From the IMG/VR virus record IMGVR_UViG_3300032130_000407, positions 1-27,986 of that record: 27,986 nt of DNA, one strand, 5' to 3'. Shown here in pieces: positions 492 through 21,400 of the stretch. Origin of the DNA: a virus. Lineage: Duplodnaviria; Caudoviricetes. Position 1 is the first letter of the stretch. Every line of letters starts with the position of its first letter. A program made the position numbers and the translations under genes. The notes under the pieces are model-generated. The model had not been told where the DNA came from, searched no databases, and worked only from the letters and a program-made list of their open reading frames with translations.

Positions 492-540
492 TGTGACTCT
501 TGTCACAGAGGTTGGTTTTCTGCAAGTCACCCTCTAGTAT
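492..540 (+). promoter_or_regulatory. promoter module P1 with TGTGAC-N4-GTCACA palindrome
   Basis: Palindrome 492-507, TTGGTT -35, 17 bp, TAGTAT 535-540; 37/49 ungapped identity to 2947-2995. Confidence 0.75.
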
Positions 541-548
541 GCCCCTTA

Positions 549-657
549 GCAGATCATCGGGGTCTATGACTGATGTCCCGTGGCACATACATCCACTCCC
601 GCAAGGGCCGTGGTTAGGAGTGCCCTATGACAATGGTCCCGTACCCCGATGGTCTGC
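549..657 (+). ncRNA. candidate rod-shaped structured RNA / 5' leader
   Basis: Nested stems 549-563/643-657 (15 bp), 568-577/629-638, 582-586/620-624, 593-596/610-613, 598-600/605-607 capped by GCAA; begins about 8 nt after the -10 of P1. Confidence 0.65.
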
Positions 658-681: not shown

Positions 682-882
682 ATGCACATACATACCAGCG
701 ACATCACGATCACGATGAACGGCGATGAAGCCGAACTGCTGGGAGAGTTCCTAGCGAACTTCCTTGGTACCGATCCTGACAAGCACACCGTTATCAAGAC
801 GGCGTTGCCGCGGGATGACGGCGTAGCCCCCCGATGGGAAGGCTTGCGTACATTGTACGACGCGGTTTGGGCAAGGATTTAA
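682..882 (+). CDS. hypothetical protein (66 aa)
   Basis: GAAGGAG RBS at 670-676, ATG 682 within ORF 649..882. Confidence 0.75.
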   Translation: MHIHTSDITITMNGDEAELLGEFLANFLGTDPDKHTVIKTALPRDDGVAPRWEGLRTLYDAVWARI

Positions 883-886
883 TGCC

Positions 887-908
887 GGGGGCTTCGGCCC
901 CCTCCCCT
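887..908 (+). repeat. intergenic hairpin repeat copy 1 (UUCG loop)
   Basis: GGGGGC-TTCG-GCCCCC-TCCCCT, 4 nt after stop, runs directly into ATG 909. Confidence 0.9.
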
Positions 909-1178
909 ATGAACACAACTGAGCAAGACATTACCTACGAAGTAGGCAACCGGGTGAAGTTCCAGACGGATGACGATAAGCCAAACTATTCATTCCATCC
1001 CCGAACCTGTGGCACCGTCACGGGCATTACCGATACCGGACAGATTGAGATACTGGTACCGGGCGTGAGGGCAAATAGTAACTGGACCCGCGATCCTGAG
1101 GAACTACACATCGCAACCGAAGAGGAATACCGCGCGTATTCGTCTTTTCCCAGCGCCGGAGCGCAAGCACGGTTCTGA
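909..1178 (+). CDS. hypothetical protein, possibly SH3/KOW-like beta barrel
   Basis: YEVGNRVKF...GTVTGI pattern; start may instead be ATG 882 (TAATG overlap), in which case the repeat is translated. Confidence 0.65.
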   Translation: MNTTEQDITYEVGNRVKFQTDDDKPNYSFHPRTCGTVTGITDTGQIEILVPGVRANSNWTRDPEELHIATEEEYRAYSSFPSAGAQARF

Positions 1179-1182
1179 TAAT

Positions 1183-1220
1183 GGGGGGCGCAAGCCCCCT
1201 CCCCCTTACTAACGAAGGAG
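1183..1220 (+). repeat. hairpin repeat copy 2 (GCAA loop) with RBS tail
   Basis: GGGGGGC-GCAA-GCCCCC-TCCCCCTT-ACTAACG-AAGGAG. Confidence 0.9.
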
Positions 1221-1227
1221 TAAGCAA

Positions 1228-1638
1228 ATGCTAGACACAACACAACAGGTCACGACCGAGCGTTACGGCTCAGGCCATAAGCATGTTGATGCAGCAAGCA
1301 TCGTTACCGATGTTGATGTCGTTGTTGAGGAAATGTTTTTTCAAGACGGCGATTATTGCGACACGGCAGACGAGGCTACGAGTGCGCATCGCAAGAGCAT
1401 CCATTTCCTTATAGATAATTTCAGCAATTTCTATGAGAGCGGACTGGTCGGAGTATGGATGCGTTCCGATTCCGGCTGGACAGACGGCGACGAACTTAGA
1501 GATGAAGATGGCAATTTTATTTTCAGTCGTAGCCAATCGCATGAAGGTCCGAAGGTTGTCTTGACACAAGATTCAGTCAAGAAACTCATTCAGGCTTTGG
1601 CATCAGCAGCCCGCCTAAAGGTGGAGATAGAACGATAA
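1228..1638 (+). CDS. hypothetical protein (136 aa)
   Basis: Strong RBS AAGGAG, ORF bounded by repeats. Confidence 0.8.
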   Translation: MLDTTQQVTTERYGSGHKHVDAASIVTDVDVVVEEMFFQDGDYCDTADEATSAHRKSIHFLIDNFSNFYESGLVGVWMRSDSGWTDGDELRDEDGNFIFSRSQSHEGPKVVLTQDSVKKLIQALASAARLKVEIER

Positions 1639-1643
1639 CGATT

Positions 1644-1668
1644 GGGGGGCGCAAGCCCCCTACCCCTT
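1644..1668 (+). repeat. hairpin repeat copy 3 (GCAA loop)
   Basis: GGGGGGC-GCAA-GCCCCC-TACCCCTT; followed by promoter module, not RBS. Confidence 0.9.
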
Positions 1669-1676
1669 GAACCTAA

Positions 1677-1726
1677 TGTGACGAATGTCACCTATCAACC
1701 TCAGGTCTAAGCGACCTTGATATAGG
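1677..1726 (+). promoter_or_regulatory. promoter module P2 with TGTGAC-N4-GTCAC palindrome
   Basis: TGTGAC-GAAT-GTCACC 1677-1692; AAGCGACC at same offset as AAGTCACC in P1; -10 is less clear (TATAGG 1721-1726). Confidence 0.55.
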
Positions 1727-1778
1727 TGTAAGCACGAATACGCCCGGTCAACCGGCTGGGTGAAGGAGGAATGAGCCT

Positions 1779-2507
1779 ATGAAAGCAGCAGACGTACAGC
1801 CGAACACGATCTATCGTGTCGGCAAGAAGGACGACCCCGGACATTTGGAGTTCGTCCAGACCACAAGCAAGCCCATCATGGAGCCGGAATACCGCAGCGA
1901 CAGGATCAGCCATGTCAACGCCTACCCAATCAAATGGGTGGACGGCGAAGTGGTAGCCATCAAGCGTATGCATGTGTATAAAGACGCACATTACAGCGGA
2001 ACGCCGGGAGCGAAGAAGCGAGACTGTAAGGTATATGCCTTGCAGAAGATTCAGCCATTCACCCAATTGAATTGGCCGGAACCGGTTGAAGGTGTCAACT
2101 ATGGGTATGGAAACACCATACCCGTAGTCGGAGCCGAGATTGGTAGTCCTGCCTTGGCTGACTGCGAACATGAATGGGTCAAGAAGGAGCGCAACAAGAA
2201 ACGTTGTGAAGCGACCTCAGATAATACAGAGGCCGACTACACGGCAAGGTGGGAAAAGATTAACCTAGCCACCTTGGAACTGTTGGGTATCTTCCAACCT
2301 AACCCAATCAATTATTATGAATGGCATCACGATTTTGACGAGGCTTTTGAAAAGCACGGCTACGTCGATGAGATTGCTAGGGATTTGGCGTATGACAAGA
2401 AATTCGGATTCACGCGGGATCGCGTCTACATGAACGATTTGTCAATCGACACGATTGAAAAGATCAACGATTTGGTGAACTGGAAAGAGGATAACGCTTT
2501 CCTGTAA
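1779..2507 (+). CDS. hypothetical protein (242 aa)
   Basis: RBS AAGGAGG, long ORF ending before repeat copy 4. Confidence 0.8.
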   Translation: MKAADVQPNTIYRVGKKDDPGHLEFVQTTSKPIMEPEYRSDRISHVNAYPIKWVDGEVVAIKRMHVYKDAHYSGTPGAKKRDCKVYALQKIQPFTQLNWPEPVEGVNYGYGNTIPVVGAEIGSPALADCEHEWVKKERNKKRCEATSDNTEADYTARWEKINLATLELLGIFQPNPINYYEWHHDFDEAFEKHGYVDEIARDLAYDKKFGFTRDRVYMNDLSIDTIEKINDLVNWKEDNAFL

Positions 2508-2513
2508 ACCGTT

Positions 2514-2551
2514 GGGGGGCTTCGGCCCCCCTCCCCTTACTAACGAAGGAG
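2514..2551 (+). repeat. hairpin repeat copy 4 (UUCG loop) with RBS tail
   Basis: GGGGGGC-TTCG-GCCCCCC-TCCCCTT-ACTAACG-AAGGAG. Confidence 0.9.
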
Positions 2552-2557
2552 TTAGAA

Positions 2558-2842
2558 ATGAACATCAGCGAACTGACAGAACACAACGACGTTCAACTGG
2601 TAGACGGACGATACGGTTATACCTCAGGACAAGATGGGGAGACTTGTCCGTTCGGCTGCATGGAGTGGTCGGCTAGCGCCTCAGGCGAAAAAATTGAAGG
2701 ATCGGAGATGTGGCAATACTACATGAACTGTTGCCGATCTGATTTCATCGCCCAAGCGCCAGACGGCAGGCTCACCATCAGCAGCATTGTCGTCAATGAA
2801 GCCATCGACAAAGCCGAATGGGACGACGAAGACGAAGAGTAA
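2558..2842 (+). CDS. hypothetical protein (94 aa, Cys-containing)
   Basis: Strong RBS; CPFGC and CC motifs; bounded by repeats. Confidence 0.8.
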   Translation: MNISELTEHNDVQLVDGRYGYTSGQDGETCPFGCMEWSASASGEKIEGSEMWQYYMNCCRSDFIAQAPDGRLTISSIVVNEAIDKAEWDDEDEE

Positions 2843-2846
2843 TGCC

Positions 2847-2871
2847 GGGGGGCGTAAGCCCCCTGCCCCTT
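2847..2871 (+). repeat. hairpin repeat copy 5 (GUAA loop)
   Basis: GGGGGGC-GTAA-GCCCCC-TGCCCCTT; followed by promoter module. Confidence 0.9.
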
Positions 2872-2946
2872 TGCAAATTGTTCACGAATTTTGATTTCAC
2901 CCGAGGGATTCAAAAACCTTAGACCCTGAAATGTAAAGAAGAATCT

Positions 2947-2995
2947 TGTGACATCTGTCACACAGGTTGTTATTATGCTAGTCACCCCTTACAAT
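2947..2995 (+). promoter_or_regulatory. promoter module P3 with TGTGAC-N4-GTCACA palindrome
   Basis: Palindrome 2947-2962, TTGTTA -35, 17 bp, TACAAT 2990-2995; aligns ungapped to P1. Confidence 0.75.
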
Positions 2996-3020
2996 AGATA
3001 GCCAACTACGAAGGAGAAGT

Positions 3021-3284
3021 ATGAGCGGAATCATTTACGAATCCGAAACTGGCGATGGTCTTGGTCGATTTATGATTGACCTTGGCGATAGCCGAAACAT
3101 GACAGTCAACGTGACCAGCGAGGGCGTCATCATGGATGTCTTTGAGCGCCAGCCTGAGGGTGGAGACTACGACTTGCTCAATACGTCCGACGAGGATGTT
3201 CACCTTGGCACGATGGGAATGACATTCGATGAGTGGGCCGACGAGGTTGTCTCATTCGATAGTCCAACTAAACTGTCAGCATGA
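3021..3284 (+). CDS. hypothetical acidic protein (87 aa)
   Basis: RBS GAAGGAG at 3010-3016. Confidence 0.8.
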   Translation: MSGIIYESETGDGLGRFMIDLGDSRNMTVNVTSEGVIMDVFERQPEGGDYDLLNTSDEDVHLGTMGMTFDEWADEVVSFDSPTKLSA

Positions 3285-3400
3285 GGTTTCTACTCATGGC
3301 AGTTATCTTCATGGCATCCTCAACGGCTATGGGTTTGCTCATAGGCATGGGGCTTACACAAAGCCTGCCTTCCGTAAAGAAGTGGAAGTCAATATATTAA
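3281..3400 (+). CDS. 39-aa membrane peptide
   Basis: ATGA overlap with upstream gene; MRFLLMAVIFMASSTAMGLLIGMGLTQSLPSVKKWKSIY; stop directly precedes repeat copy 6. Confidence 0.65.
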   Translation: MRFLLMAVIFMASSTAMGLLIGMGLTQSLPSVKKWKSIY

Positions 3401-3403
3401 ACA

Positions 3404-3443
3404 GGGGGGCTTCGGCCCCCCTCCCCTTAACCGATAGAAGGAG
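3404..3443 (+). repeat. hairpin repeat copy 6 (UUCG loop) with RBS tail
   Basis: GGGGGGC-TTCG-GCCCCCC-TCCCCTT-AACCGATAG-AAGGAG. Confidence 0.9.
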
Positions 3444-3447
3444 CAAT

Positions 3448-3723
3448 ATGACTACAAACATACTTGTGGTTTTGGACGGAGGACTCGTACAAGAAGTACG
3501 AACCGACGGACCAATCCATGACATAAACGTCGTCATCGTAGATCACGATGCGGAGACAATGAACTGGGGACAGCCTACTTTGGATGGCCCGCCAGATGGA
3601 ACGATCACCATGCCTAACGGCACGGAGGCGTTTACCCATCAGGCTTGGGTAGGTCCATTGGATCTGGACGCACCAGACACGAAAGTTGTCTTCGATCATT
3701 ACACGGAAGCAGCAGGAGTATGA
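3448..3723 (+). CDS. hypothetical protein (91 aa)
   Basis: ATG 3448 after AAGGAG; ILVVLDGGLVQEV...VVIVDHD. Confidence 0.8.
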   Translation: MTTNILVVLDGGLVQEVRTDGPIHDINVVIVDHDAETMNWGQPTLDGPPDGTITMPNGTEAFTHQAWVGPLDLDAPDTKVVFDHYTEAAGV

Positions 3724-3905
3724 GTAGGGATTATGTAGCGAATCCAGACTTCTGTCCTGTCTGTGGATACGATGAGATCACAGCACACCAATGCGAACTA
3801 GACGGAACTGACGGATATCAGGCTGTTACCTGTGACCATTGTGATGCTGAATGGCATGACCTATGGACATTGACAGGCTACGAACTAGTAGTGGAGGCAG
3901 CATGA
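3720..3905 (+). CDS. small zinc-ribbon protein (61 aa)
   Basis: ATGA overlap; CPVCG...CDHC. Confidence 0.75.
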   Translation: MSRDYVANPDFCPVCGYDEITAHQCELDGTDGYQAVTCDHCDAEWHDLWTLTGYELVVEAA

Positions 3906-4258
3906 TTGAACTAATCAGAGGCGACCGTAAGGTCGAATGGGTTGACATAGGAGAAGGCTGGAACGGTAACTACGATCCAGACGATCCAGACGATACAGCG
4001 TTGCTACGTTTCGACGTTCTGGAACTGACGAACATTCACGGACTTTTTTCGGACAGTCCTGTAATGGAGTGGGAAGTTTTGGACGACGCGTCGTACTGTA
4101 CGCAGATGCCAGCGGATTCGTCCGACGACATTCTGCGTCAGGCAGCCGAGATCATTATGAACGCCACCTATGGCAAGAAAAATATCAAGAAGATTTGCGA
4201 AGAACTGTCTTGGATTTCACCGGGATGGTTGGAGCAACCTAAACAAGAAGGAAACTAA
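3902..4258 (+). CDS. hypothetical protein (118 aa)
   Basis: GGAGG RBS, ATGA overlap. Confidence 0.8.
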   Translation: MIELIRGDRKVEWVDIGEGWNGNYDPDDPDDTALLRFDVLELTNIHGLFSDSPVMEWEVLDDASYCTQMPADSSDDILRQAAEIIMNATYGKKNIKKICEELSWISPGWLEQPKQEGN

Positions 4259-4260
4259 CT

Positions 4261-4344
4261 GTGGACTTTAAGGCAAGAGGCGCATTTTTCGGAGTCAAGA
4301 AACTTGTGACTGGCGGGAAGAAACGCCGCAAGCGCAAGCGGTAA
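4261..4344 (+). CDS. 27-aa basic peptide
   Basis: GAAGGA RBS, GTG start, MDFKARGAFFGVKKLVTGGKKRRKRKR; stop directly precedes repeat copy 7. Confidence 0.55.
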   Translation: MDFKARGAFFGVKKLVTGGKKRRKRKR

Positions 4345-4347
4345 TCC

Positions 4348-4390
4348 GGGGGGGCGAAAGCCCCCCTCCCCTTAACCGATTTGAAAGGAG
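4348..4390 (+). repeat. hairpin repeat copy 7 (GAAA loop) with RBS tail
   Basis: GGGGGGGC-GAAA-GCCCCCC-TCCCCTT-AACCGATTTGA-AAGGAG. Confidence 0.9.
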
Positions 4391-4396
4391 TCCAAC

Positions 4397-4795
4397 ATGG
4401 GCGACAGAGGTAACATAGAAATCGTACAAGGCACACGATGGGCAGGCGAAGGTCAAGAGCCACGCCCAATGGACAGCGTGTTCCTGTATACGCATTGGCG
4501 AGGTAGCCAAGTAGCGCAGATTCTTGCCAGCGCGTTGGAGAAAAGTGGAATCAGGAGCGGCGATCCGTCGTACTTGACTCGCATAATCTTCAATGAATTG
4601 CAAGGCGATGATCGCACAACCACAGGGTTCGGCATCAGCGTCGGGCATCCAGATGACAACGAATACTCAATTCCGAAGGTTATCTGGCAACGCGATAATG
4701 AAGACAGACAAGAACTGCGGATTCTTTACAATGGTAGAGATTACTCACCAGATGAATTTGTAGCAGAATACGCCAACAGAGAACAGTTGGTATAA
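4397..4795 (+). CDS. hypothetical phage protein (132 aa)
   Basis: Strong RBS; MGDR...VFLYTHWRG N-terminus resembles uncharacterised phage proteins (from recall). Confidence 0.8.
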   Translation: MGDRGNIEIVQGTRWAGEGQEPRPMDSVFLYTHWRGSQVAQILASALEKSGIRSGDPSYLTRIIFNELQGDDRTTTGFGISVGHPDDNEYSIPKVIWQRDNEDRQELRILYNGRDYSPDEFVAEYANREQLV

Positions 4796-4806
4796 GATCA
4801 CACATC

Positions 4807-4850
4807 GAAAGCGCCGGGGGTTCTCCTTCCCCCCGGCGCTTTCCCCTTTT
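4807..4850 (+). terminator. intrinsic terminator-like hairpin closing the small-gene array
   Basis: Perfect 14-bp stem 4807-4820/4830-4843, loop TTCTCCTTC, then CCCTTTT. Confidence 0.75.
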
Positions 4851-4866
4851 ATGATATGATTACGGC

Positions 4867-5277
4867 ATGATACGAGTAACTGGAACCATCCCCGCGTCAG
4901 AAGGCGTCGCAGAAGAATTTCGTCCCTTAGAAATTCACGTTACTTCTGATGGAAAAGGTATTGAACTTTCTAAATCGCCGGGTGCCGGGCCTAGAGATTC
5001 CGAATCATTTGATTTGTCCTACACCAAAGAAGAAGGATGGACAGATCCCGACGCCCGCATCCTAATGAAAATCAGTAGGAAAATGCGTGGGGTAACAGAC
5101 GTTCGACTTCTACCTTATCGGGGAGGTCACAGAACCATCCAACCAACTCTTGACGGTACCGAAGAAGAAGTTGCTTCTACCATTGTAGCCATCGGGGGAC
5201 GAATCCATCCGTCTATTGAGGATTTGAATGTTGAATCAGATTCACCAATAGGGGATGAACCCGACAAATTGCATTAA
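4867..5277 (+). CDS. hypothetical protein (136 aa), leaderless
   Basis: TGA-TATGAT extended -10 at 4852-4860, ATG 6 nt later, no RBS. Confidence 0.75.
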   Translation: MIRVTGTIPASEGVAEEFRPLEIHVTSDGKGIELSKSPGAGPRDSESFDLSYTKEEGWTDPDARILMKISRKMRGVTDVRLLPYRGGHRTIQPTLDGTEEEVASTIVAIGGRIHPSIEDLNVESDSPIGDEPDKLH

Positions 5278-8200
5278 ATCGTAGCAAGTAACCCTAGAAT
5301 AAAGTTTGTCGTTTCCGCATCAGCCCCTTGTTCAAACAAGTGAAACGGTCGCTGCTCTGCTGGTAAAGCCAATGCTTCCATAGCGACAGTCAGAACCTCT
5401 GAAAAGAATAACTCTGGACCCGACTCTGGCTCATGCGTTCCATCGAACGGATCATATCCGGGGTCATCTACATAACGATGGTCACCATCATCAGGATAGG
5501 CTTTTCCCATGTAGCCTGACGGAAATGTATCAACGGCGACTTCATCCTTCGGATAAGAGTGCCCCTCGCGTTTGCTTACAGGCATATCATTTATCTGCAC
5601 AAGTTTGGTCCCTAAACTGCCCGATGGAGTATCCGGGTCCATACCGTACCTACGCATAACAAACGCCTGAATCACAGGATAGAGCATCGGATGAATCGCA
5701 TCTAACCGATGTGTTACTTCATGGAACACGGTTGAGTCTCCGTCTTCGGGTGACACATCTACCCGTCCGTCCGCCCACGGCTGCCACACACGCCTGCCCT
5801 GTTGGTAAGTAACGTAGCCCCCGCGCGTAATGAACTTGTATTGAGGTATTACCTCGGACCCATCCTGCGCTGAATCATCTTTCTTATGGGTTTGCAAACC
5901 GAGCCTTCCTGCCAAGCCGAGCCTACGCACCCACTCAATCGGGTAATTTTCTAACACTCTGACAACTGCGTCCTCTGCCTCTTCCGCATAAGATATGTAA
6001 TCTTCTATAGCCTCTTTGATTTCTTTTCGTTTTTCCATACTAAGATTCGGTCGTTGTAACAATCGATGCAGAGCCTCGATCGGGTAATGAGAACCGTCGG
6101 TGCCGTACAGGATTTTTGAACCCTCCCAATCGACAACCATCCCGATCATGTGATGATCAAACTCACCTCCAAGTTCGCCTTCTGTAACTTGGCTATCGTC
6201 CAAATGAACTGCGCTAGTCCGAACGCGGACTCCTTCACCACGCAACAACTCCCTGATGGACTCTGAACCTGTTGCGAATTCACGAATCTTCTTAAGAAAA
6301 TCAAAAGCAATAAGACCGTCGTCACGCTGAACGCCAACAGAAGTCAACTTTCCTGCCCTTATTAAATCTCCCAATTTTCTATGCCGTCGTGCATCTTTGA
6401 TGGATACTTGCCAAGCGGATTCAAGTAAAGTTTCTCCCCTTGCGGATTTCAAATAGGGAGTGCTGACACGCGCTGGAACTAAATCACCAACATTAATAGT
6501 GGTTCCATCGACTGCGGAACGGTTCCTACTCCACTTTCTGTCCGCAGGCCAAATCCCGTAATAGCGACGTACTTGGCTCTCTGCCGCGAAGCGAGTAAGT
6601 ACGCCTTCGAGTTCACCCGGACTGAGCGTACTCACAAGTTCTTTAGCCCTTTGGTCGGACATTCCTAAATCCAAAAACATTTCTTCTACCACGGAAAGAT
6701 CACCTGTGGCATCTTTTAGTTTGGCACGCACCTTGTCGTAAGCCGAAGCAAGTTTCTCAGTACCCACATATTGGAAGAATTGAGGATGCCTCGGGTCGTC
6801 TTCCGCCCAATCGGGATGCTCGTCCGCTAATCCCGGTATCCCATCTATTTCATCATGCAGAGCCTCAGCAACCAGAGTTGGTAGATCATCCAACGTATCT
6901 AATAATTGTTGTTCCGTTATTCTTCCTTGCTCAAAATCTTCGGTAAGACTATCAATCAAACCTTCGAATAAAACTAACGGATCACCATTCCACATAGCCT
7001 GATGGACCGGCCAACCACCCTCTCCTCCCTCAGCGTTCCACGCTCCACCTTCTGCCTCATCCTCATATCCCCGACCGGGGTCGTGGGGCTTGTCGGGACG
7101 ATCCGCTCGCGCCCACTCAGGGGTATAACCCAAAATCCGTTCCGCTATTGATGCACCAATCTGGTTAAGCCGTGCCGCTTCGGCTGGGCGTGTAAGATGG
7201 CTGTCGGCCATGTCGTCCGCATCGAGCCCGACTGACTGTTCGTGTGCGAGGTAATGTGCAGCGTCATTAGCAGCGTTTCTTACCAGTTCGCCATCTGTTC
7301 GACCTAATATCTCCGACAGAAAATCTTCTGGTCTAGCGGATTCCCTTATCTCTTTAGCACGAACGGTTCGTACTGCTTCTCCTATCAGCGCCCCAACCCT
7401 CAAAATAGAAGTAAGCAGTTCATCAGCCGTCGTTCCGATCGTGGTATCTTCATCCTCGACTGCTTCTCGTACCGCATGAATCAATAACTCCAAAGGAATG
7501 TCAGCGTTAGGATCATCTAAAAGAGCCTGCATCATTTCATCCGGTATTTCGTCCACTTCAACAGGTACTAACGCGTTACCATTCGCGTCCATTACATAAA
7601 AACCGTCTCTCAACCTGTCCTGAGGGCTTGGACCTAGTGCAAGTTCCAGACCCGATTCGTTTTGGAAATCGGCAGGCGGAACAGGAAGTGGTTTACCGAC
7701 AAAAACAACCCGTCGCTCGCCTATCTCAAAGCCATCCCTAATCATTTCCATGGCATCATCCATCGAAGTGATTCCCATATTCTGTAACACGGCGTGGGCA
7801 TCCTTAAAAAATACCGCTGCCTCATCTACCGCCCTTCTAAAATCTGCCTTATAGCCTGTTCTCTTACTATTCTCATATCTCCCTAACGGTTCTTGAAATT
7901 TACGAAGTCTTTGTAATGATTTTTTCAAAGCAGCAACCTGTGGAGACGCGATGATTTCTCTCGCCTTCTTCACCAGCCCGCTCTCTCCCTCCTCCGGCTC
8001 CAGTAAACTTACTGTCGTGTAATCTCCAGCCTCATCTACCGGATCTAAAAGTGTTTCAGCAATAGCAGCAATACTCTCAAGAGCCTCTTCACTCGTAATC
8101 GGTTCATCTGGTTGAACATCTTCGTCAGGGTCACCCCTTCCTCTCAGAGGAGAGCGATCTCCTCTGCTTGTGCGACGAAACTCCTCACGCAAAGCCTCCT

Positions 8201-8630
8201 GTGATCCCCACCGCGCTGGACCAGAAGATGCGGGTGGTTTAGGAATCGGAGGCAAACTCGCTGCTCGTTGCTGCGCCTCGCGCGCTTTCCGTCGTTCCTC
8301 CTGTTGGGAAACCGTCGTGGTTTGTATTGTCCGTAAACCTGACGGTTGTTCTCCACCAACATCGGTTGCCACAGATGGAGCCTCATAGCCTTGATCCCCG
8401 TAAGTCGGGGTGTATGCAACAGCGTTGCCTTTCTTATCAACAACCCTGACATCTCTTGGACGAGTAGTGGCCTCTAATCCCTCCAGAATTTCCTTACCGA
8501 ATTCATCTAACATCCGTGTTCCACCGGGCCGCTCCCAAGCCGTGCCCTCCTGAACAATTTTATCCATGTCCGCGTCGATAGGTTCAGACTTGTAAGGCTC
8601 GATTCTTAACCCACCCCAACGCGGAGCCAT
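5274..8630 (-). CDS. 1118-aa protein with C-terminal zincin-like metallopeptidase motif
   Basis: HEVTH at 5709-5723 plus downstream SEVLT glutamate; start ATG 8630 by TAATG coupling and GGAGAGG RBS. Confidence 0.7.
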   Translation of the reverse strand: MAPRWGGLRIEPYKSEPIDADMDKIVQEGTAWERPGGTRMLDEFGKEILEGLEATTRPRDVRVVDKKGNAVAYTPTYGDQGYEAPSVATDVGGEQPSGLRTIQTTTVSQQEERRKAREAQQRAASLPPIPKPPASSGPARWGSQEALREEFRRTSRGDRSPLRGRGDPDEDVQPDEPITSEEALESIAAIAETLLDPVDEAGDYTTVSLLEPEEGESGLVKKAREIIASPQVAALKKSLQRLRKFQEPLGRYENSKRTGYKADFRRAVDEAAVFFKDAHAVLQNMGITSMDDAMEMIRDGFEIGERRVVFVGKPLPVPPADFQNESGLELALGPSPQDRLRDGFYVMDANGNALVPVEVDEIPDEMMQALLDDPNADIPLELLIHAVREAVEDEDTTIGTTADELLTSILRVGALIGEAVRTVRAKEIRESARPEDFLSEILGRTDGELVRNAANDAAHYLAHEQSVGLDADDMADSHLTRPAEAARLNQIGASIAERILGYTPEWARADRPDKPHDPGRGYEDEAEGGAWNAEGGEGGWPVHQAMWNGDPLVLFEGLIDSLTEDFEQGRITEQQLLDTLDDLPTLVAEALHDEIDGIPGLADEHPDWAEDDPRHPQFFQYVGTEKLASAYDKVRAKLKDATGDLSVVEEMFLDLGMSDQRAKELVSTLSPGELEGVLTRFAAESQVRRYYGIWPADRKWSRNRSAVDGTTINVGDLVPARVSTPYLKSARGETLLESAWQVSIKDARRHRKLGDLIRAGKLTSVGVQRDDGLIAFDFLKKIREFATGSESIRELLRGEGVRVRTSAVHLDDSQVTEGELGGEFDHHMIGMVVDWEGSKILYGTDGSHYPIEALHRLLQRPNLSMEKRKEIKEAIEDYISYAEEAEDAVVRVLENYPIEWVRRLGLAGRLGLQTHKKDDSAQDGSEVIPQYKFITRGGYVTYQQGRRVWQPWADGRVDVSPEDGDSTVFHEVTHRLDAIHPMLYPVIQAFVMRRYGMDPDTPSGSLGTKLVQINDMPVSKREGHSYPKDEVAVDTFPSGYMGKAYPDDGDHRYVDDPGYDPFDGTHEPESGPELFFSEVLTVAMEALALPAEQRPFHLFEQGADAETTNFILGLLATI

Positions 8631-8887
8631 TAGCCGCTCAACCTCTCCCCACACTTGTCGCAAAACGATGACCACGGATAAGTCTGACGGAACTCCGCAG
8701 GATGAGTGCAGTATAAAACTGTCTTAACATAGGAACCGACAGTAGTTCGAATCAACTCCGACATACTTATATCGCCCGTCTCGGCAGCACGCTTCCACTC
8801 CTCTCGCTCCTCTTCAGAAATTCTTACCAAAATCTGTGCTGTTTTAGTATCTTCTTCAGTCGCTATGTTCGATGGCTTCTGCATCAA
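8630..8887 (-). CDS. ribbon-helix-helix protein with C-terminal Cys/His cluster
   Basis: QILVRISEEEREEWKRAA..ISMSELIR (RHH pattern); CTH...CDKC. Confidence 0.7.
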   Translation of the reverse strand: MMQKPSNIATEEDTKTAQILVRISEEEREEWKRAAETGDISMSELIRTTVGSYVKTVLYCTHPAEFRQTYPWSSFCDKCGERLSG

Positions 8888-9464
8888 TAATCTCCGCTTC
8901 TGTTATTTCCTCTGAATCTTCAACTTCTGCTAATACTTTTTCGACTACACCCGATTCCAAAACTCCAGCCTTCTGCATCAATTCCAATAGTTGCATCGAT
9001 TCGCCTCGATAATCAACCATGCCCGTTTTCTGTAAGGCTTCCCCAGCCAAACTGTGACGAATGTCCGCAGTACCGCCAACATTCAAATCAACCTTCTGAA
9101 CCTCCATGCCCAACAGGCGCGACCTGCGATCCATGATTCCCAGAACTGTTTGAATTGCTTTCATGTCAGGCTCAACAACTAACTCCTCATCACCAATCGT
9201 TTCCCGTCGGAACTGAGTCAATGGCCAGACAGAGGATTGAAGATTATCTAAACGCTCCAATTCCATTCTCAAAACTTCAGGATATGCCAAAGCGGTATCC
9301 CGGTTTAATCTTTCCAGAACACGACTGATCCCCTTCGAAACAACCGACACGGATACTTCATAACGCTTGGCTATCTCAGAATGAGAAGCACCGGCCTGCC
9401 GCATACGGAACATCTTTAAATCCCGTTCAGCAATAAACTCCCTAGTTAGATTATTCCCTGCCAT
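8856..9464 (-). CDS. HTH DNA-binding protein, terminase small subunit-like
   Basis: RQAGASHSEIAKRYEVSVSVV HTH; ELERLD and IMDRRSRLLG motifs typical of phage TerS-like HTH proteins. Confidence 0.6.
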   Translation of the reverse strand: MAGNNLTREFIAERDLKMFRMRQAGASHSEIAKRYEVSVSVVSKGISRVLERLNRDTALAYPEVLRMELERLDNLQSSVWPLTQFRRETIGDEELVVEPDMKAIQTVLGIMDRRSRLLGMEVQKVDLNVGGTADIRHSLAGEALQKTGMVDYRGESMQLLELMQKAGVLESGVVEKVLAEVEDSEEITEAEIIDAEAIEHSD

Positions 9465-13685: not shown

Positions 13686-14552
13686 ATGAATATAAACCCA
13701 GACCTATTTCAAAAATTCTACGATCATAACTTGATCGAAAACTGGCCATCTCCGGAACTCCTCCCACGGCTGGATCGACCCAACCAAGAACCTACGACTA
13801 ATCTCCAAGCCGAATGGCAAGACGACGGACTAGTGATTCTTCCCAACTTCATGCCTGAATATTTTCTGGACAGATATGCAGAAGCGTGGCTACGGGACAA
13901 CGCCAACCGACCCCGCGGCTGGCCATTCGACGTTCCTTATATGTACATTTCAGCCCTTATGGATATGCTGGCATACGAACCGCTACATAAAGTAATGGAA
14001 GAACTCATCGAAGAACCGATGGGAACTCATCTCAACCTGACCGGATGGCGTTCAACTCAAAGAAACTGGCATCAAGACGGATATCTAAACCCCGATCATG
14101 TACATGACTTTTACTGTGCCGTATGGATTGCTCTTGATGACATCCATCCAGACGCAGGACCATTTCAATTTATTCGTGGTTCTCACACATTCCCAGTCAT
14201 CACCAACCAGAAGATGCTCGCCGCCTTAAAACCAGAGCAGAGAGGTGATAACTGGCCCAAACATTCAGAAGAAATCCTGACTCCCATCTTTGAACAACTT
14301 CTCATTGATGCGGAATTGAATGTAGAAAGTTTCATCGCCCAAAAGGGAGATGTATTGATCTGGCACAGCCGACTGATGCATCGTGGGAGCGCCCCCATCA
14401 ATCCAGACTTGGAGCGCCGCGCGTGTATCGCTCACTATTCAGGCATCGATCACAGACCCGACATGCCCAATCAGCCACTCTCACGAATCGGCAGGACTAA
14501 TAACTTTCAACTTTCTGGCTACTACTTCCCGATTGAACAAGCGTATCGTTAA
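13686..14552 (+). CDS. phytanoyl-CoA dioxygenase (PhyH) family 2OG-Fe(II) oxygenase
   Basis: WHQD, VWIALDD, GP...GSH, GDVLIWH..L.H, distal R. Confidence 0.9.
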   Translation: MNINPDLFQKFYDHNLIENWPSPELLPRLDRPNQEPTTNLQAEWQDDGLVILPNFMPEYFLDRYAEAWLRDNANRPRGWPFDVPYMYISALMDMLAYEPLHKVMEELIEEPMGTHLNLTGWRSTQRNWHQDGYLNPDHVHDFYCAVWIALDDIHPDAGPFQFIRGSHTFPVITNQKMLAALKPEQRGDNWPKHSEEILTPIFEQLLIDAELNVESFIAQKGDVLIWHSRLMHRGSAPINPDLERRACIAHYSGIDHRPDMPNQPLSRIGRTNNFQLSGYYFPIEQAYR

Positions 14553-15173
14553 ATGCTAACCATAGTTATTGCCTCTTACCGGTATGGACATTTGGCCGCA
14601 CATTGTATTGAAAGTCTCCTAGCCCAAACTAAAGCACCTGACAAAATTCTATTCGTAGATGATGGCATCGGTGACTGCACCCATTTGCCAGCAGTGTATC
14701 CCGAAGTTGAATACGTTCTAAGAGAAGAAAACCTTGGCGTAGTAAACAACTTTCAAGACATGTTGATGAGAGTTCAAACTGAATACACAATGTTTGTAGG
14801 AGCAGACAACTGGCTACGCTCTGACACTGTTGAACAACTATTAGAACATAACTACCTACGAGATGCTGACATTGTTACCTATGAAATTATGGTAACCGGA
14901 GAGTTCAAGATGAAACATCGCGACGCAGGATTGCCCGATGTTATGAGAAACGGGGATGTCTACTGGCGTCGTAACGGCCACCACGGTTCGATAATGTACC
15001 GCACATCCTTAGGACAAGCAGCGGGGTATGCAGCCAAGGACGGACAAAAGAACGCGTGTGAAGATTGGGAACTGTGGGATCGGATGCTGGCGGGCGGTGC
15101 CACAGTTACTCATCTCAACGAGCCGCTGCTCTACTATAGAAGACACAGAGAGAACTTCATTAACTGTGGTTAG
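14553..15173 (+). CDS. glycosyltransferase family 2
   Basis: IVIASY, VDDG, ENLG, GADN, EDWELW, YYRRH. Confidence 0.9.
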   Translation: MLTIVIASYRYGHLAAHCIESLLAQTKAPDKILFVDDGIGDCTHLPAVYPEVEYVLREENLGVVNNFQDMLMRVQTEYTMFVGADNWLRSDTVEQLLEHNYLRDADIVTYEIMVTGEFKMKHRDAGLPDVMRNGDVYWRRNGHHGSIMYRTSLGQAAGYAAKDGQKNACEDWELWDRMLAGGATVTHLNEPLLYYRRHRENFINCG

Positions 15174-15886
15174 GGAATCTTTTTAGGATCAACCTTTTCA
15201 ACTATTTTACCATTTACAAGATAATCGGGATAGGTGCTCGCTGATCTAGTTCGGCAAAAACCATTCATATAAGTCATTCTGGAACTGGTTGATTTGTTCG
15301 CCTCACTTCCGTGGACAATCGTCACCGACCAAACCATCACATCGCCCTTTTGGGCTGTGTACTTTGTCCCCTCCAAATCACCTCTTTCAAAAAGCCGCAG
15401 GTTTGCAGGGTCGCCAAACTCTTCCCAAAGATGTGATCCTGTAATGAACTCAACAGGACTATTTTCTTCTGTAATGTTGTCTATAGCAATGATCGTTTGA
15501 AGATAATCCGTCACAAGATTCGAAGTGAATACATGACCTTCTCTAAATATCGTATCCCTATGCCACGCAAAGGTATCTAGATCACCTTGTTCTCGGAAAT
15601 AGATTTGATTATTTATCTGTCGAACATCATCGCCTAAAAATATTCGTACAAGATTTTGCATTCGTTCATCAATGCGTATGTCATTCAAATAATTATTGGC
15701 TAATGCCGGAAAAAATATAAGCGACTTCTTGTTGTAGGCTTGTTCACTTGGAGCATGCTTGTACCCCCCTGCCTTAATCTGATCGTCCGTGACTCCATAC
15801 GCTTCACTCTTGATCCTGTCGCACTCTTCCTCAGTGAAGACGGAAGGTATAACAACTACACCCTTATGCTTATATTCTTTCAACAT
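15170..15886 (-). CDS. PhyH family dioxygenase
   Basis: WHRD, IAID, GSH, GDVMVW..VHGS..N.S..R. Confidence 0.9.
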   Translation of the reverse strand: MLKEYKHKGVVVIPSVFTEEECDRIKSEAYGVTDDQIKAGGYKHAPSEQAYNKKSLIFFPALANNYLNDIRIDERMQNLVRIFLGDDVRQINNQIYFREQGDLDTFAWHRDTIFREGHVFTSNLVTDYLQTIIAIDNITEENSPVEFITGSHLWEEFGDPANLRLFERGDLEGTKYTAQKGDVMVWSVTIVHGSEANKSTSSRMTYMNGFCRTRSASTYPDYLVNGKIVEKVDPKKIP

Positions 15887-16385
15887 AGTTACTAAGAATC
15901 TTATACTGATGATCTTCTACGCCCTGTGCGGCAGAGTAAGCCTTTTCATACCCCGCCCGCTTCGCACACTCTATAACTTTGTCACAGTATTCTCCATAGG
16001 GGTACCGCAGATACCTCGTTCTGAACGGTGCAGCGATTTCTTGCATTATCTCTTTTTCCGATAGTTCACAAAGGTTCCTATGCGACCATGTATGCCACCC
16101 GATTTCAAATGTATAAAGACTGCATAATTCTTTAACTTCGTGCATAGTGCAGTAGCGTTCAAGTTTTGGAACATTCTTCAAATCAAACTCGTTGTTTCCT
16201 CCTAGGAAATTCCCCATCACAAACATAATACCAGATTTATCTTTCAAAACATCTTGATTTTCATAGACGTTCCGATAGACCCCATCAAACCCAATCGGAT
16301 CATCACAGGCAAGTATCTGCTCTCGGGTGTGATAGTTGGGATGATTTTCATCTCCAATGTTATGCGCCAATCTCAACCCTTCCAT
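15870..16385 (-). CDS. polysaccharide deacetylase (NodB/CE4-like)
   Basis: EIGWHTWSH..L, RYPYG, degenerate FDG motif 1. Confidence 0.82.
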   Translation of the reverse strand: MEGLRLAHNIGDENHPNYHTREQILACDDPIGFDGVYRNVYENQDVLKDKSGIMFVMGNFLGGNNEFDLKNVPKLERYCTMHEVKELCSLYTFEIGWHTWSHRNLCELSEKEIMQEIAAPFRTRYLRYPYGEYCDKVIECAKRAGYEKAYSAAQGVEDHQYKILSNYVERI

Positions 16386-16876
16386 GGGGAATACCGTTCA
16401 TACTTGTAAACATTAAACACTGAAGTGTATTCCCTGTAAGGAAATCGAAACGTTTCTATCAACCTTCCAAACGGATAAGGCAACAACCAATCTTGAATCC
16501 CACCAATACAGACATGCTTACTGGCAGCCTCCAACACCAGCCTCGCTATCTGTTCATGGTCGTACTGCCTATAAAGCAGACCAGTCACTAGAACTAAATC
16601 GTACTCTCCCTCTGGAGCGAACACACGTTCGACATTCTTGGGCAACCTGCTCGCGGCATTGTCACTCATCTCAATGGCGTGGATCTGCTTTGCCGGAAGA
16701 TCCCCCGTTATGAATCCCTCACCAGCACCAACATCCAATGCCCTGTCATAGTATTCGCCTAAGCCTTCTAGAACTGTCAGATAGAAACGCTTGCGGTAGA
16801 TGTCATCAGGGGTGACCGTGTACTCCCACGGGTCATCCTGTTCATACCATTCTTCAAGTTCCTGCTTGGTCTGCAT
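16373..16876 (-). CDS. SAM-dependent methyltransferase, NodS-like
   Basis: Y..DDPWEY N-terminus, ALDVGAGEG, YDLVLV..LLY. Confidence 0.85.
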   Translation of the reverse strand: MQTKQELEEWYEQDDPWEYTVTPDDIYRKRFYLTVLEGLGEYYDRALDVGAGEGFITGDLPAKQIHAIEMSDNAASRLPKNVERVFAPEGEYDLVLVTGLLYRQYDHEQIARLVLEAASKHVCIGGIQDWLLPYPFGRLIETFRFPYREYTSVFNVYKYERYSPWKG

Positions 16877-18211: not shown

Positions 18212-18487
18212 CTACTCCCCTACCTCAATGTAAATACACTCACCCGGACACTCATCTGCCGATTCAATCACGGCCTCCAACTGGTCCTCAGGAACCTCGG
18301 CCATGCCTTCGGCCATCTGGTAGGCGGGATCACCCTTGGGGGAACCATCTGGGCCGTACATCGTGGGCCATCCAACCTCCTTGACGTAGGCCAATCCATC
18401 GTCGTGCATCTCGAAGATGTCAGGGCAAATCTCGGCGCACAGACCGTCGCCCGTACACAGGTCTTGGTCAATCCAAACCTTCATCAT
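18212..18487 (-). CDS. single-cluster ferredoxin
   Basis: KVWIDQDLCTGDGLC...CPGECI (CxxDxxC...C). Confidence 0.93.
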   Translation of the reverse strand: MMKVWIDQDLCTGDGLCAEICPDIFEMHDDGLAYVKEVGWPTMYGPDGSPKGDPAYQMAEGMAEVPEDQLEAVIESADECPGECIYIEVGE

Positions 18488-21400
18488 TCAACCTCTTCGA
18501 TAGTTAGTCGGTACCACCCACTGTTGTTCCCGTTGTACACGGAAGCACGCACCACATAGTCGCCAGCAGCCTGATTCGTGCGGACGATGCGGCTGTCCCA
18601 CTGATCGCTCACGTTGTCGATCACGGGAACACCGTCAGAGCAAGCCCCCCCGGTATCGCAGTAGGTGATCGTCGGGGTTTCGTCCACATCCACGGCGGTG
18701 CTGGGAGGGTTAACACAAGTGTTCCCACAGTCGTTCCCGCCATCATCGTCACTTTCAATCTGTTGACCGACCCCTACTGCTGACGCATCTCCTGAGTGGT
18801 CTCCCTCGGGAGCGTGGGTATCCCAGTTCAGGTAGATGTAGGGGTCGGCAGCCTCGTTGTTTGTATTGAACTGAGCACGGGTCAGGTTCGTTTCAGCGTC
18901 GATACGGATGCTCGTAGGTTCATCCAACGTGAACTGGACATAGTCATAGTTGGTGCGGCTAGTAGACGAGACGATGCACCAGTCTCCCATGCCTCTCCAA
19001 CCACCCTCAGCGCAGCCCTCCTCGGTGCCCACGGTCGCGCTCGCACTCGCAGTAGTCGTGGTGGCCTCCGTGTAGGCATCACCAACAGTGGCCGTTGTTT
19101 CATTGTCATTCCATGACCTCTGGGTGGAGCAACCGCCACTCTGCTGTATCCCATCTATCATAAGGCAGGACACAAAGTCAGTTCCTGTCCGCGCCACCAC
19201 GGTCGTTGTATCAACGAGGGTGTTGGTGACCGTCGTAGCGGTCGTCGTGACTGTAGTTGTATCTAGATGCCAGTGACCGTCGTTGCTGTTATGCGTCAGA
19301 ATCCCCGACTCTGAGGTGGTGACATTGGTCGTGGTTGCTGTCCCCGTCTGGGCAGTTGACGAGGATGTAGAGATCGTTTCTTGCAATGACACAGCAGTGT
19401 TCGTATATGTGTAGGTCGGAACATAGACCGGAGCAGGAGGGGGGATGTATGTCTCTTGGACTTCTTCGGGGAGATATTCTTCTGCGACCTCAGCATCAAC
19501 TATCCCTGCTTCTACCTCAACAGTGAAGTCAACCCATGTAACATACCCACCCGGCGGAGTACCCCAGTCATCGTAATAGTTAGGATCATTTGCTGCGTCG
19601 TAAGCCTCCCAACTAGTGAAGCCGCCGGGAGCCATAGAGCAGGCATCCGTACCCCTACACCCTTCATAGGGATCCCAACTAGGTTCAGGTACTACTGGTT
19701 CCGGTTCCTCTACTACTGGCTCTTCTGGTGGCTCCTCTGGCTGCAATTCACACCAGTGTTCATCACAAATATCAGGTGAGTCTTCATCAGGCCAAGGCAC
19801 CACCTCTTCATCCCAGTATGGATCTTCTTCCTCGTCCCAAGGCTCCTCGTCCCAAGGCTCCTCTTCACACCAAGACTCCGCATCACAAACGTCAGGCTCT
19901 TCAGGCTCCCAATCTGGATCCCAGTCTGGATCTTCTACCTCCCAATCTGGGTCTTCTTCGATCTCCTCATCCCAAGGCGGCTCTTCGCACCAATCAGTAT
20001 CTGAACAGCCCTCCTCTACCTCAGGCTCCTCCACCTCAGGCTCATCCGTTTCTTCGATTTCAGGTTCGTCTACTTCTTCAGAAGGCACCTCCGCTTCATC
20101 CACTTGCTCTTCATCCACTTCCTCTTCTGAAGGTGAATCTGGCTCGGGTAGAAGTTCTTCGTCAAAGGTGCCTGTATCTTCCGGGTCGGTGAATGGGTCT
20201 TCCTCATCATCCCACAACTCTGGCTCTTCCAAGTCATCAACATCTTCACCCGTGAATTCATTCCAGTCGTCCCACTCCTCCTCGGTCCACTCCTCGGTCA
20301 TGTCCTCCCAGTCCTCCTCCCACTGGGCTTCCATTTCCTCGTCGTATTCCTGCCAATCCTCTTCTGTCCATTCCCATGTTTCGCTAGGTGGTGGTCCCCA
20401 GTCCTCGGGCCACTCCTCTAGACCCTCCTCCTCCAGAATCCACGCTTCCTCATCTTCCGCTGACCAGTTTCCCCACTCGTCATCTTCTTCTAACCAAAGA
20501 TCATCTTCAGATACATTTTCATCTTCTTCTTCCATCCAATCTTCATCAGACCAATCCTCTTCCAAGGACAAATCGGAATCTTCATCCAAGGACCACTCGT
20601 CATCTTCTTCATCATTGACCTCCCATAACAATTCCTGTTCAGCGTCATACGCTTCCCAATCACCATCATCCCACAGCGCGGTTTCGCTAGGTGACGGACC
20701 CCAGTCCTCTGGCCATTCGTCAAAACCTTCCTCTGCAAGAATCATGGCCTCTTCATCAGCGGCCCACTCTTGATCGTAGGCGTCCCAATCGTCTTCAGTC
20801 CACTCTGCGGATTCCGTGGGTGACGGACCCCAATCCTCAGGCCACTCCTCTACACCCAGTTCTTCCAGCAGTTCCTCTTCCCACGACTCCGGATCTTCCA
20901 TCTCCTCTTCCCAGATGGCGTCCATTTCCTCGTCGTAGATATCCCAATCTTCTTCTTCCCAGTCAACGGTTTCGGTAGGCGACGGACCCATGAGGTCTTC
21001 GTTCCACTCCTCCAAACCCATCTCTTCCAGAATCCACGCCTCTTCCAAATCAGCGTCATACTCCTGAAAGGCGAAATCCTCTTCGTAATATTCTTCTTCG
21101 TACTCCTCCCAGAACTCCTCCTCATCAAACTCTTCATGTTCTTCAAAGAATTCGATGCGCTCCTCTTCGACCTCCTCCATGAACGATTCAACTTCTTCAA
21201 ACAGTTCTTCAACATCGACAGCCTCACCAAAGAGATCGTCCATCAACTCCTGTTCTTCTTCAAAATATTCGTCGTCGTATTCGACTTCTTCCCACTGCTC
21301 GTCTTCCCAATACTCTTCATCCACACTGAGAAGAATCTCAACGAAATCAATCTCATCTTCTTCAAATATTTCAGGGGCTTCCCACTCTTCAACTGATTCG

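Follow-up and report, generated by a model that had tools for sequence, protein, structure and literature searches.

Tetraloop-hairpin repeats as probable joints of a variable gene cassette array in a marine phage

Exchange of small genes at hairpin-bearing linkers is described for the PeSL (promoter-early stem-loop) cassettes of the T4-type phages RB49/phi1, T4/PST and KVP40/nt-1 (PMC2839356, PMC4122927). Here, we analyze a comparable array in a phage contig, IMG/VR record IMGVR_UViG_3300032130_000407 (Duplodnaviria; Caudoviricetes; 27,986 nucleotides, called the window throughout), in which small genes are separated by seven copies of a hairpin with a tetraloop and a C-rich tail. We conclude that the seven repeats are probably the joints of a variable cassette array in likely early operons, that exchange likely proceeds by short homology, and that the hairpin is likely a leaky stop or a 3' protector. 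As in the PeSL regions covered by those reports, intergenic linkers that combine a stem-loop with a ribosome-binding site (RBS) lie between small orphan genes, gene gains, losses and replacements are bounded by linkers, crossover points fall at several places within the linker, and no dedicated recombinase is known (PMC2839356, PMC4122927). Unlike in PeSL, the linker is promoter-less and promoters stand as separate cassette heads; moreover, the stem pairs a G-run with a C-run, the loops are UUCG or GNRA, the tail is poor in U, the host is likely actinobacterial, and the array contains RNA units that lack genes. PeSL elements are further marked by mini-circles from recombination between linkers and by stem-loops that work as terminators or attenuators; for the latter, contigs from RNA runs offer only indirect hints in the array. 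Consensus sigma70-like sites on the + strand of the array are found only at 2948-2995 and not in each linker, and because the linker promoter of PeSL is missing, we do not file the array as PeSL.

Other known elements share parts of the design. T4 has CUUCGG hairpins and phiC31 has early terminators without poly-U, and here too a GC-rich tetraloop hairpin lies a few bases past the stop codon, but it is multiplied in an array, has a fixed C-rich tail with 2 to 4 U in 8 nt, and appears to be an exchange joint. Integron cassettes consist of a gene and a 3' attC site with RYYYAAC/GTTRRRY core boxes, recombine at one fixed crossover, and are rarely non-coding. The array likewise pairs a gene with a 3' folded site, has promoter-less cassettes that would be read from an upstream promoter, and includes rare non-coding cassettes, but the 45 linkers inspected have no attC core boxes, there is no single crossover base, and no integrase has been found so far. 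Finally, the SAS/ESAS start-associated intergenic repeats of Microbacterium phage clusters EC, EF, EG and EI are also repeated motifs of unknown role ahead of small actinobacteriophage genes, and 13 nt of the window (1721-1733, in module P2; one copy, found post hoc) match the 3' portion of the cluster EC motif exactly; neither gene exchange nor tetraloop hairpins are reported at those motifs in the portion of the source that treats them (PMC7302621). Neither the linker element nor arrays of this sort with RNA cassettes that lack genes were described in a limited literature library, without supplements.

The hairpin is a genuine repeat. The pattern GGGGGCNNNNGCCCCC has 7 exact matches in the window, compared with a mean of 0.04 and a maximum of 1 in 100 shuffles, and one single-mismatch match at 10407, within a phosphoesterase gene, is likely chance. 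The original prediction, made by a model from the letters alone, was accurate about the repeat itself: the seven copies start where it had placed them (Table 1), their G-runs begin 3 to 6 nt past a stop codon, their loops are UUCG three times, GCAA twice, GUAA and GAAA, and the flanks of copies 2/4, 6/7 and 1/5 form pairs. It had also proposed a standard linker with an RBS, which fits four copies only. In linkers 2, 4, 6 and 7 the order is hairpin, TCCCC(C)TT, RBS and start, whereas copies 3 and 5 lead into promoter modules and copy 1 is followed, directly after its tail, by the g1 ATG with no Shine-Dalgarno sequence. To compare linkers we assembled 45 internal hairpins from the window and its relatives, one for each strain group (of 62 hairpins, 17 were set aside because they came from near-identical strains, in 16 cases, or were cut by a contig end, in 1). 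As in PeSL, these are intergenic stem-loops with a Shine-Dalgarno sequence and start at the 3' end in 4 of the 7 window copies and 29 of the 45 overall; in those 29 the RBS and start lie within 50 nt, which leaves no room for a promoter, and the others lead to promoter modules, RNA units or an ATG without a Shine-Dalgarno sequence. The full linker pattern had no match in 185,579 species genomes. We note that three or four copies of the hairpin, at 0.4-2-kb spacing, are found in L018, L012/L049/L052 and L230, which have no detected DNA similarity to the window (L230 was compared by protein only) and are possibly independent arrays.

Relatives were obtained by scanning metagenomes with a linker-plus-RBS pattern, which gave 23 loci, including 4 that are the contig of the window itself. 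Eighteen of the other 19 share array units with the window or one another, and the last, L254, shares genes only with the distant G001. The comparison set is therefore the window plus 18 loci, which form 14 strain groups (L238 and L248 are possibly one strain at the g9 junction), with L254 and G001 excluded from counts. It contains 34 units: 12 of the window, 21 other open reading frames (ORFs; two poorly defined) and one non-coding. Flank families were set by hand; automatic clustering had split some. Annotated phage records gave no match, G010 has only 5 proteins in common with the window and no such array, and distant carriers of g10 (L260-L292 apart from the G001 group) have mostly 0-2 tetraloop hairpins.

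Gene order in the array is not fixed. Across a hairpin, the following unit differs in 51 of 73 strain-group pairs, versus 16 of 56 at hairpin-free junctions, and extra neighbors number 15 of 27 with a hairpin versus 4 of 22 without (Fisher p = 0.009). Five different families stand downstream of g1 in six strain groups, four units downstream of g2 in five, and three downstream of g3 in three; g2 precedes g5 in the window and sits behind g9 in L250. Blocks of homology to the window begin and end at hairpins in L244, L246, L248, L250, L252 and L259. Moreover, loose contig ends at 2513, 2514, 2847 and 2868 in DNA runs X2 and X3 have other neighbors in the same samples, and one matches the x57 end. 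Gains, losses and replacements of genes are thus bounded by linkers, as in PeSL, and some gains and losses fall at RBS repeats or at a CCCCTT that has no tetraloop hairpin. The original prediction held that the repeats could act as joints for shuffling genes and that a fixed order across relatives would speak against it; the neighbor changes and block ends, together with the tail polarity that follows, bear out the joint.

The hairpin travels with the gene before it. Where the upstream unit is the same and the downstream unit differs, the loop is common to 34 of 50 pairs (31 of 33 when g9 is set aside), whereas the first ten bases of the tail are common to 0 of 50. Conversely, where the downstream unit is the same and the upstream unit differs, the loop is common to 8 of 19 pairs and the first ten tail bases to 12 of 19, against a background of 308 of 900 for the loop and 12 of 900 for the tail. 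Because of these patterns of sharing, we assign the hairpin to the preceding gene and the tail with its RBS to the downstream one, and locate the switch to the C-rich tract or a position 3' of it. The tails that precede x6 and g2 differ as far as the RBS, x4 varies in presence between a pair of RBS repeats with no second hairpin, and the ends of g0 in L253 and of x10 have 36 nt in common, across the 5' side of the hairpin. Exchange points range over the linker from the C tract as far as the RBS, and thus there is no single fixed crossover base. Such a spread, we infer, is consistent with recombination through short homology, whether an annealing protein carries it out or a polymerase stalled at the hairpin switches template. 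Phages encode several families of annealing-type recombinases, as the relevant part of one survey describes (PMC2896510).

The hairpin appears to be selected as RNA, as originally proposed. The loop is UUCG or GNRA in 42 of the 45 (the others are GUAU twice and UUUG once). In 22 of 45 hairpins the C-run falls short of the G-run, and a T comes next in all 22 of these, while the reverse is never seen; therefore, G·U pairs form on the sense strand only. Such hairpins number 10-11 within 20 kb of G001 and G002 and 8 within 4.3 kb of L254, and the stems co-vary in G001 and L254. The further claim that these are not classical terminators also stands, as all 45 are followed by only 2-4 U in 8 nt where a U-tract terminator has 7-9 nt, and contigs from RNA runs bridge two of the hairpins. 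Contigs of four RNA runs cover the array, and three of them cross hairpin 5 (X15 record 3 and X19 record 26) or hairpin 6 (X16 record 11). In the account we drew on, mycobacterial RNA polymerase does not stop at hairpins without a U-tract and tolerates imperfect U-tracts (PMC3993855). We think it likely from these sequence features that the hairpin is a leaky stop or a 3' protector for the preceding gene. Contigs from RNA runs also stop at 4329-4343 in four studies and at 4801 and 4803 in two, and 10 of 27 listed right ends between 400 and 4900 (30 records were listed, 3 lay outside this range, and 7 were not shown) fall within -20 to +5 of a hairpin start where 1.25 are expected, but this clustering is a weak hint because the interval was chosen post hoc, the libraries may contain DNA, and a block to reverse transcription looks alike. 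No contig of RNA runs X15 and X16 lies on 4810-9000, which fits high early expression, but absent cover is no evidence. Pairing of CCUU in the tail with AAGG in the RBS was considered as a switch and rejected as too weak (-1.4 to -4.6 kcal/mol).

Promoters lie beside the linkers and not within them. The original prediction of an array lacking a promoter thus holds for the linkers but not for the region, which contains the modules P1 (492-540), P2 (1677-1778) and P3 (2947-2995). P1 and P3 are homologous, P1 is kept in L244, L248 and L252, and the -10 hexamer varies within TAnnnT; P3 follows linker 5 and consists of a palindrome and then -35 and -10 hexamers 17 nt apart. CCCCT is also found inside promoters, immediately before the -10 hexamer. 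Palindromes of 16 bp, which we take to resemble the CRP/GlxR box, are found at 492-507, 1677-1692 and 2947-2962, just upstream of the predicted early promoters, and their place suggests control by a host or phage regulator.

Some cassettes appear to carry RNA in place of a gene. Unit N2, between P1 and g0, has a fold z of -6.0 and is kept in 5 relatives with G·U changes, its interior being swapped in L248; we also note that N2 contains one 4x4 internal loop twice, in opposite orientations. Up to four closed-stem units (N1-N4) stand in a row in relatives, with spacers that are CCCCTT or other short pyrimidine- or purine-rich sequences. Strings of N1-N4 units are found between P1 and g0 in L244, L248, L249, L252, L253 and L256, and N16 before g2 in L249, L252 and L259 (reversed loci were read on the - strand). 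N1 is missing from the window exactly up to CCCCTT, the closing stems of N1 and N4 have compensatory and G·U changes among 3-4 distinct versions (no shuffle control), and interiors of closed-stem units are swapped or nested. In three strain groups N16 (110 nt, z = -6.5) separates a linker from g2, each time with a different gene upstream; it terminates in stem, T, ACCCTT. Both N1 and N16 are gained or lost between CCCCTT-type repeats, and N16 is bounded by a direct repeat of ~7 nt. Rfam gave no family at cut-off in the window and no match for N1-N4 and N16. A scan of viral contigs with the N2-interior motif gave 12 matches, none with a closing stem, and these were taken as chance.

Two distant arrays also contain an 82-nt RNA that resembles transfer-messenger RNA (tmRNA). 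It is found at L254:4138-4219 and at L262:2751-2832 (G001), and also in G002, but not in the window; a scan for short tmRNA matched only G001 and G002. The RNA scores 72 and 59 bits with RF00023 (gathering cut-off 47) with 294 model positions skipped, such that the tRNA-like domain (TLD) is kept and the mRNA-like part is absent. In L254 it comes after a linker and another closed-stem unit, and in G001 a hairpin and a sigma70-type promoter stand ahead of it. The end of the L254 contig may be the start of a second copy, and both L262:343-2330 (G001) and L254:2087-3200 have several hairpins and then longer conserved non-coding modules with a second shared hairpin. The available accounts of mycobacteriophage DS6A report a TLD-only tmRNA, likewise without an mRNA-like part, that inhibits host tmRNA (PMC4131195, PMC11915505). 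Unlike that of DS6A, the tmRNA of L254 and G001 stands among linker-bounded RNA units of a cassette array, and a role in SmpB binding or trans-translation would be by analogy. Because the DS6A RNA is reported to be inhibitory, it is plausible that the gene-less RNA units act as decoys.

How the array changes may be pictured as follows. A cassette would consist of a tail (with its RBS, promoter module or RNA unit), a cargo and a hairpin, the last perhaps a weakened terminator in both origin and role. Recombination would use a general annealing or template-switch route, and exchanges at linkers would survive since every gene's expression signals stay whole.

Several observations weigh against the linkers as exchange joints. 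The relatives are not an unbiased sample, being skewed to loci that keep linkers because the linker pattern fetched them. Linker 6 has unchanged neighbors in 3 of 3 strain groups, changes are also found away from hairpins (x26, y1, the g7 duplication and L250), and most orders are explicable by gain, loss and replacement, with a clear order change within the close group only in L250. At the g9 junction the hairpin occurs with four different loops although its neighbor is unchanged, and thus polarity is not absolute. Exact identity between window copies is 7-26 nt, which is short for homologous exchange. In strict BLAST alignment only 78 of 255 block ends fall in linkers (30 expected); this breakpoint count is linker-enriched but dominated by within-gene divergence, and we used the junction count instead. 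No linker-to-linker deletion joint or circle is listed in three DNA contig runs, which drop rare variants, and the sole raw-read run checked for them held 1 read. No annealing recombinase was found among 116 scanned ORFs (40 of the window, 11 of its extension, 39 of G001/G002, which is not every G001 ORF, and 26 of array relatives), with about one fifth of the phage genome in view; RusA is present in G001.

Perhaps CCCCUU is mainly an RNA cutting site for a host nuclease of actinobacterial RNase E type and DNA exchange a by-product, a possibility that is compatible with the joint reading and that we regard as unlikely but live, because CCCCTT bounds RNA units too and g1 has no RBS. Cleavage in the single-stranded C-rich tract behind each helix would set free folded RNAs as well as mRNAs protected by their hairpins, and would give a g1 message without a leader. 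CCCCTT indeed flanks N1, N2, N4 and N16, units without a tetraloop hairpin, and the g1 ATG comes right after CCCCT with no Shine-Dalgarno sequence in 5 of 5 strain groups and behind two upstream genes. Within the part of the RNase E study consulted, the mycobacterial enzyme cleaves on the 5' side of cytidines in single-stranded RNA, but the usual T-CCCC-TT tail does not fit RN/CNU, the motif mapped for it in vitro (PMC10641625). Moreover, the CCCCT before the -10 hexamer of promoters is not transcribed, and RNA contigs bridge hairpins 5 and 6. A bolder and rather doubtful proposal combines cutting with exchange: the helix and CCCCUU would be read twice, as an RNA cut that releases units and as a DNA exchange joint, and the array would be a swappable library of proteins and decoy RNAs directed at host RNA-binding machinery. 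The decoys in that case may be the tag-less tmRNA together with uncatalogued closed-stem RNAs, at least four in number, whose interiors are nested and exchangeable.

The hairpins might instead be ordinary weak terminators that arrived with accreted genes, the linkers being no hot spots and breaks elsewhere being lethal or silent. Such a hairpin after a stop codon is common, as 121 stretches in half of the viral collection, from unrelated phages, carry it, mostly in one copy; several G001 copies have U-rich tails or are followed by sigma70-type promoters; and a survival bias for intergenic breaks is to be expected. Hairpin-free junctions, however, are equally intergenic and change less often, new junctions are scarless, lie within the shared tract and have a consistent polarity, and N16 and N1 are gained or lost between short direct repeats. 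We therefore consider accreted terminators improbable as the whole account.

More doubtful still is a dedicated enzyme, either an integron-type tyrosine recombinase or an HUH transposase of the kind associated with repetitive extragenic palindromes (REP), that recognizes the folded single-stranded stem and CCCCTT. The polarity is integron-like, with the hairpin part of the upstream cassette, N16 is bounded by its short direct repeat, and most of the genome is outside view. The exchange points, however, range from the C tract to the RBS (x6 and g2 tails), x4 moves without a hairpin, the 36 nt common to the L253 g0 and x10 ends extend across the 5' side, and the stems co-vary freely. No integron integrase matched among the 116 ORFs, which represent a partial genome and partial relatives. 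The hairpin is also not enriched in 4 host-like genomes, with 3-14 matches versus 2-16 for a reversed control, and a REP/RAYT element was rejected for want of high copy number in these genomes, which stand in for the true host. Lastly, that the variable junctions are mis-assemblies at repeats is hardly credible even though the relatives are all short-read metagenome contigs and L237 may be chimeric, as differently flanked linkers have a median of 13 and never more than 36 identical bases in common, with 31 reached in 6 of 1651 pairs, as 7 of the 27 new types of junction recur in two or more separate contigs, and as mis-joined window repeats could not create the 21 non-window protein units involved.

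Table 1. Position of the array features in the window.
Feature	Position	Strand	Description
Promoter module P1 (predicted)	492-540	+	16-bp palindrome 492-507, -35-like 512-517, 17-nt spacer, -10-like 535-540
CCCCTT joint and gene-less closed-stem RNA unit N2	542-657	+	N2 is 549-657; 15-bp closing stem, variable interior
g0, 66 aa	682-882	+	RBS; homologues in 6 related contigs; no Pfam or PHROG match
Linker 1	887-908	+	UUCG hairpin, TCCCCT, then ATG; no Shine-Dalgarno sequence
g1, 89 aa	909-1178	+	weak SH3-like match, under cut-off
Linker 2	1183-1227	+	GCAA hairpin, C-rich tail, RBS
g2, 136 aa	1228-1638	+	behind g1, x6, RNA unit N16 or g9, by strain
Linker 3	1644-1668	+	GCAA hairpin and tail; no RBS
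Module P2 (likely promoter)	1677-1778	+	near-perfect palindrome copy, cluster EC 13-nt match, g3 RBS
g3, 242 aa	1779-2507	+	no Pfam match
Linker 4	2514-2557	+	UUCG hairpin, tail, RBS
g4, 94 aa	2558-2842	+	found only in the window's own strain group
Linker 5	2847-2872	+	GUAA hairpin and tail; no RBS
Promoter module P3 (predicted)	2947-2995	+	P1 design; four different genes precede P3 in relatives
g5 (87 aa) and g5b (34-39 aa, hydrophobic)	3021-3400	+	
Linker 6	3404-3447	+	UUCG hairpin, tail, RBS
Block g6-g7-g8-g9	3448-4344	+	hairpin-free inside
Linker 7	4348-4396	+	GAAA hairpin, tail, RBS; four loop types at this junction in relatives
g10, 132 aa	4397-4795	+	phrog_31860, widespread family; 344 homologues
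Operon-closing hairpin	4807-4850	+	related to array hairpin, longer

The operon-closing hairpin has a full U-tract in four strain groups (L238, L244/L255, L247 and L250); in the window and L245 its tail is interrupted by C. We note that g9 (4261-4344) encodes a 27-aa basic peptide with a very basic C terminus and lies directly before a hairpin both in close relatives and in G001, where it is 70% identical.

What the cassettes encode is probably accessory or anti-host material, including RNAs that may be decoys. No Pfam match above cut-off was found for any of the 11 array proteins or the cassette proteins of relatives that were scanned. In the atlas, g2 matched only unnamed viral clusters under 0.8 and g8 matched nothing; g10 gave a confident model without a clear fold match (none at E <= 0.001, best Z 4.4). 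The G001 array holds an AAA ATPase and a large partner gene, with Fic, histone-deacetylase-like and phosphatase genes nearby. In L237, the array and a cut methylase gene adjoin bacterial-type genes that are dioxygenase-like and nitroreductase-like (by eye), and L237 may be a chimeric assembly or an integration junction.

The phage that carries the array is seen only in part. The window is an entire 28-kb virus contig, and a second record overlaps it at 99.95% identity. Completeness estimates for that record and one relative are 18% at 28 kb and 41% at 54 kb, and therefore the genome is roughly 130-160 kb, most of it unseen. No T4 core gene was found among the scanned ORFs, with most of the genome outside view. 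Pfam and PHROG searches identified WhiB, a holin, a phosphoesterase and a ferredoxin in the window. The host is likely a marine member of the Acidimicrobiia, because the best cellular matches of the ferredoxin, 88% and 82% identical, come from marine metagenome-assembled genomes labelled Acidimicrobiales and Actinomycetota; the WhiB gene is a further pointer to an actinobacterial host. All 20 runs in which the stretch is present carry the label marine, seawater or plain metagenome. Elsewhere in the window, 13686-16876 and 26034-27986, on into L294, encode PhyH and 2OG-Fe(II) oxygenases, a glycosyltransferase, a deacetylase and methyltransferases, a cluster likely for DNA or surface modification. 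Two large proteins without a Pfam match, of 1133 aa and 1614 aa, are encoded at 5274-8675 and 18484-23328 (- strand), and the longer one starts like a lipoprotein and includes a repeat region that is very acidic.

Linker-guided cassette exchange is known from T4-type phages of Gram-negative hosts. Here, we extend it to a marine phage population in the wild, whose host is likely an actinobacterium, and map the positions within the linker at which exchanges fall. More than 30 variable early units thereby become candidates for tests of host takeover or anti-defense. Most interesting, perhaps, is that folded RNAs without genes are part of the cargo and that relatives carry a tag-less tmRNA, a type for which inhibition of ribosome rescue is reported. 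If the RNA units are decoys, cassette arrays would be a place to look for RNA-based phage weapons.

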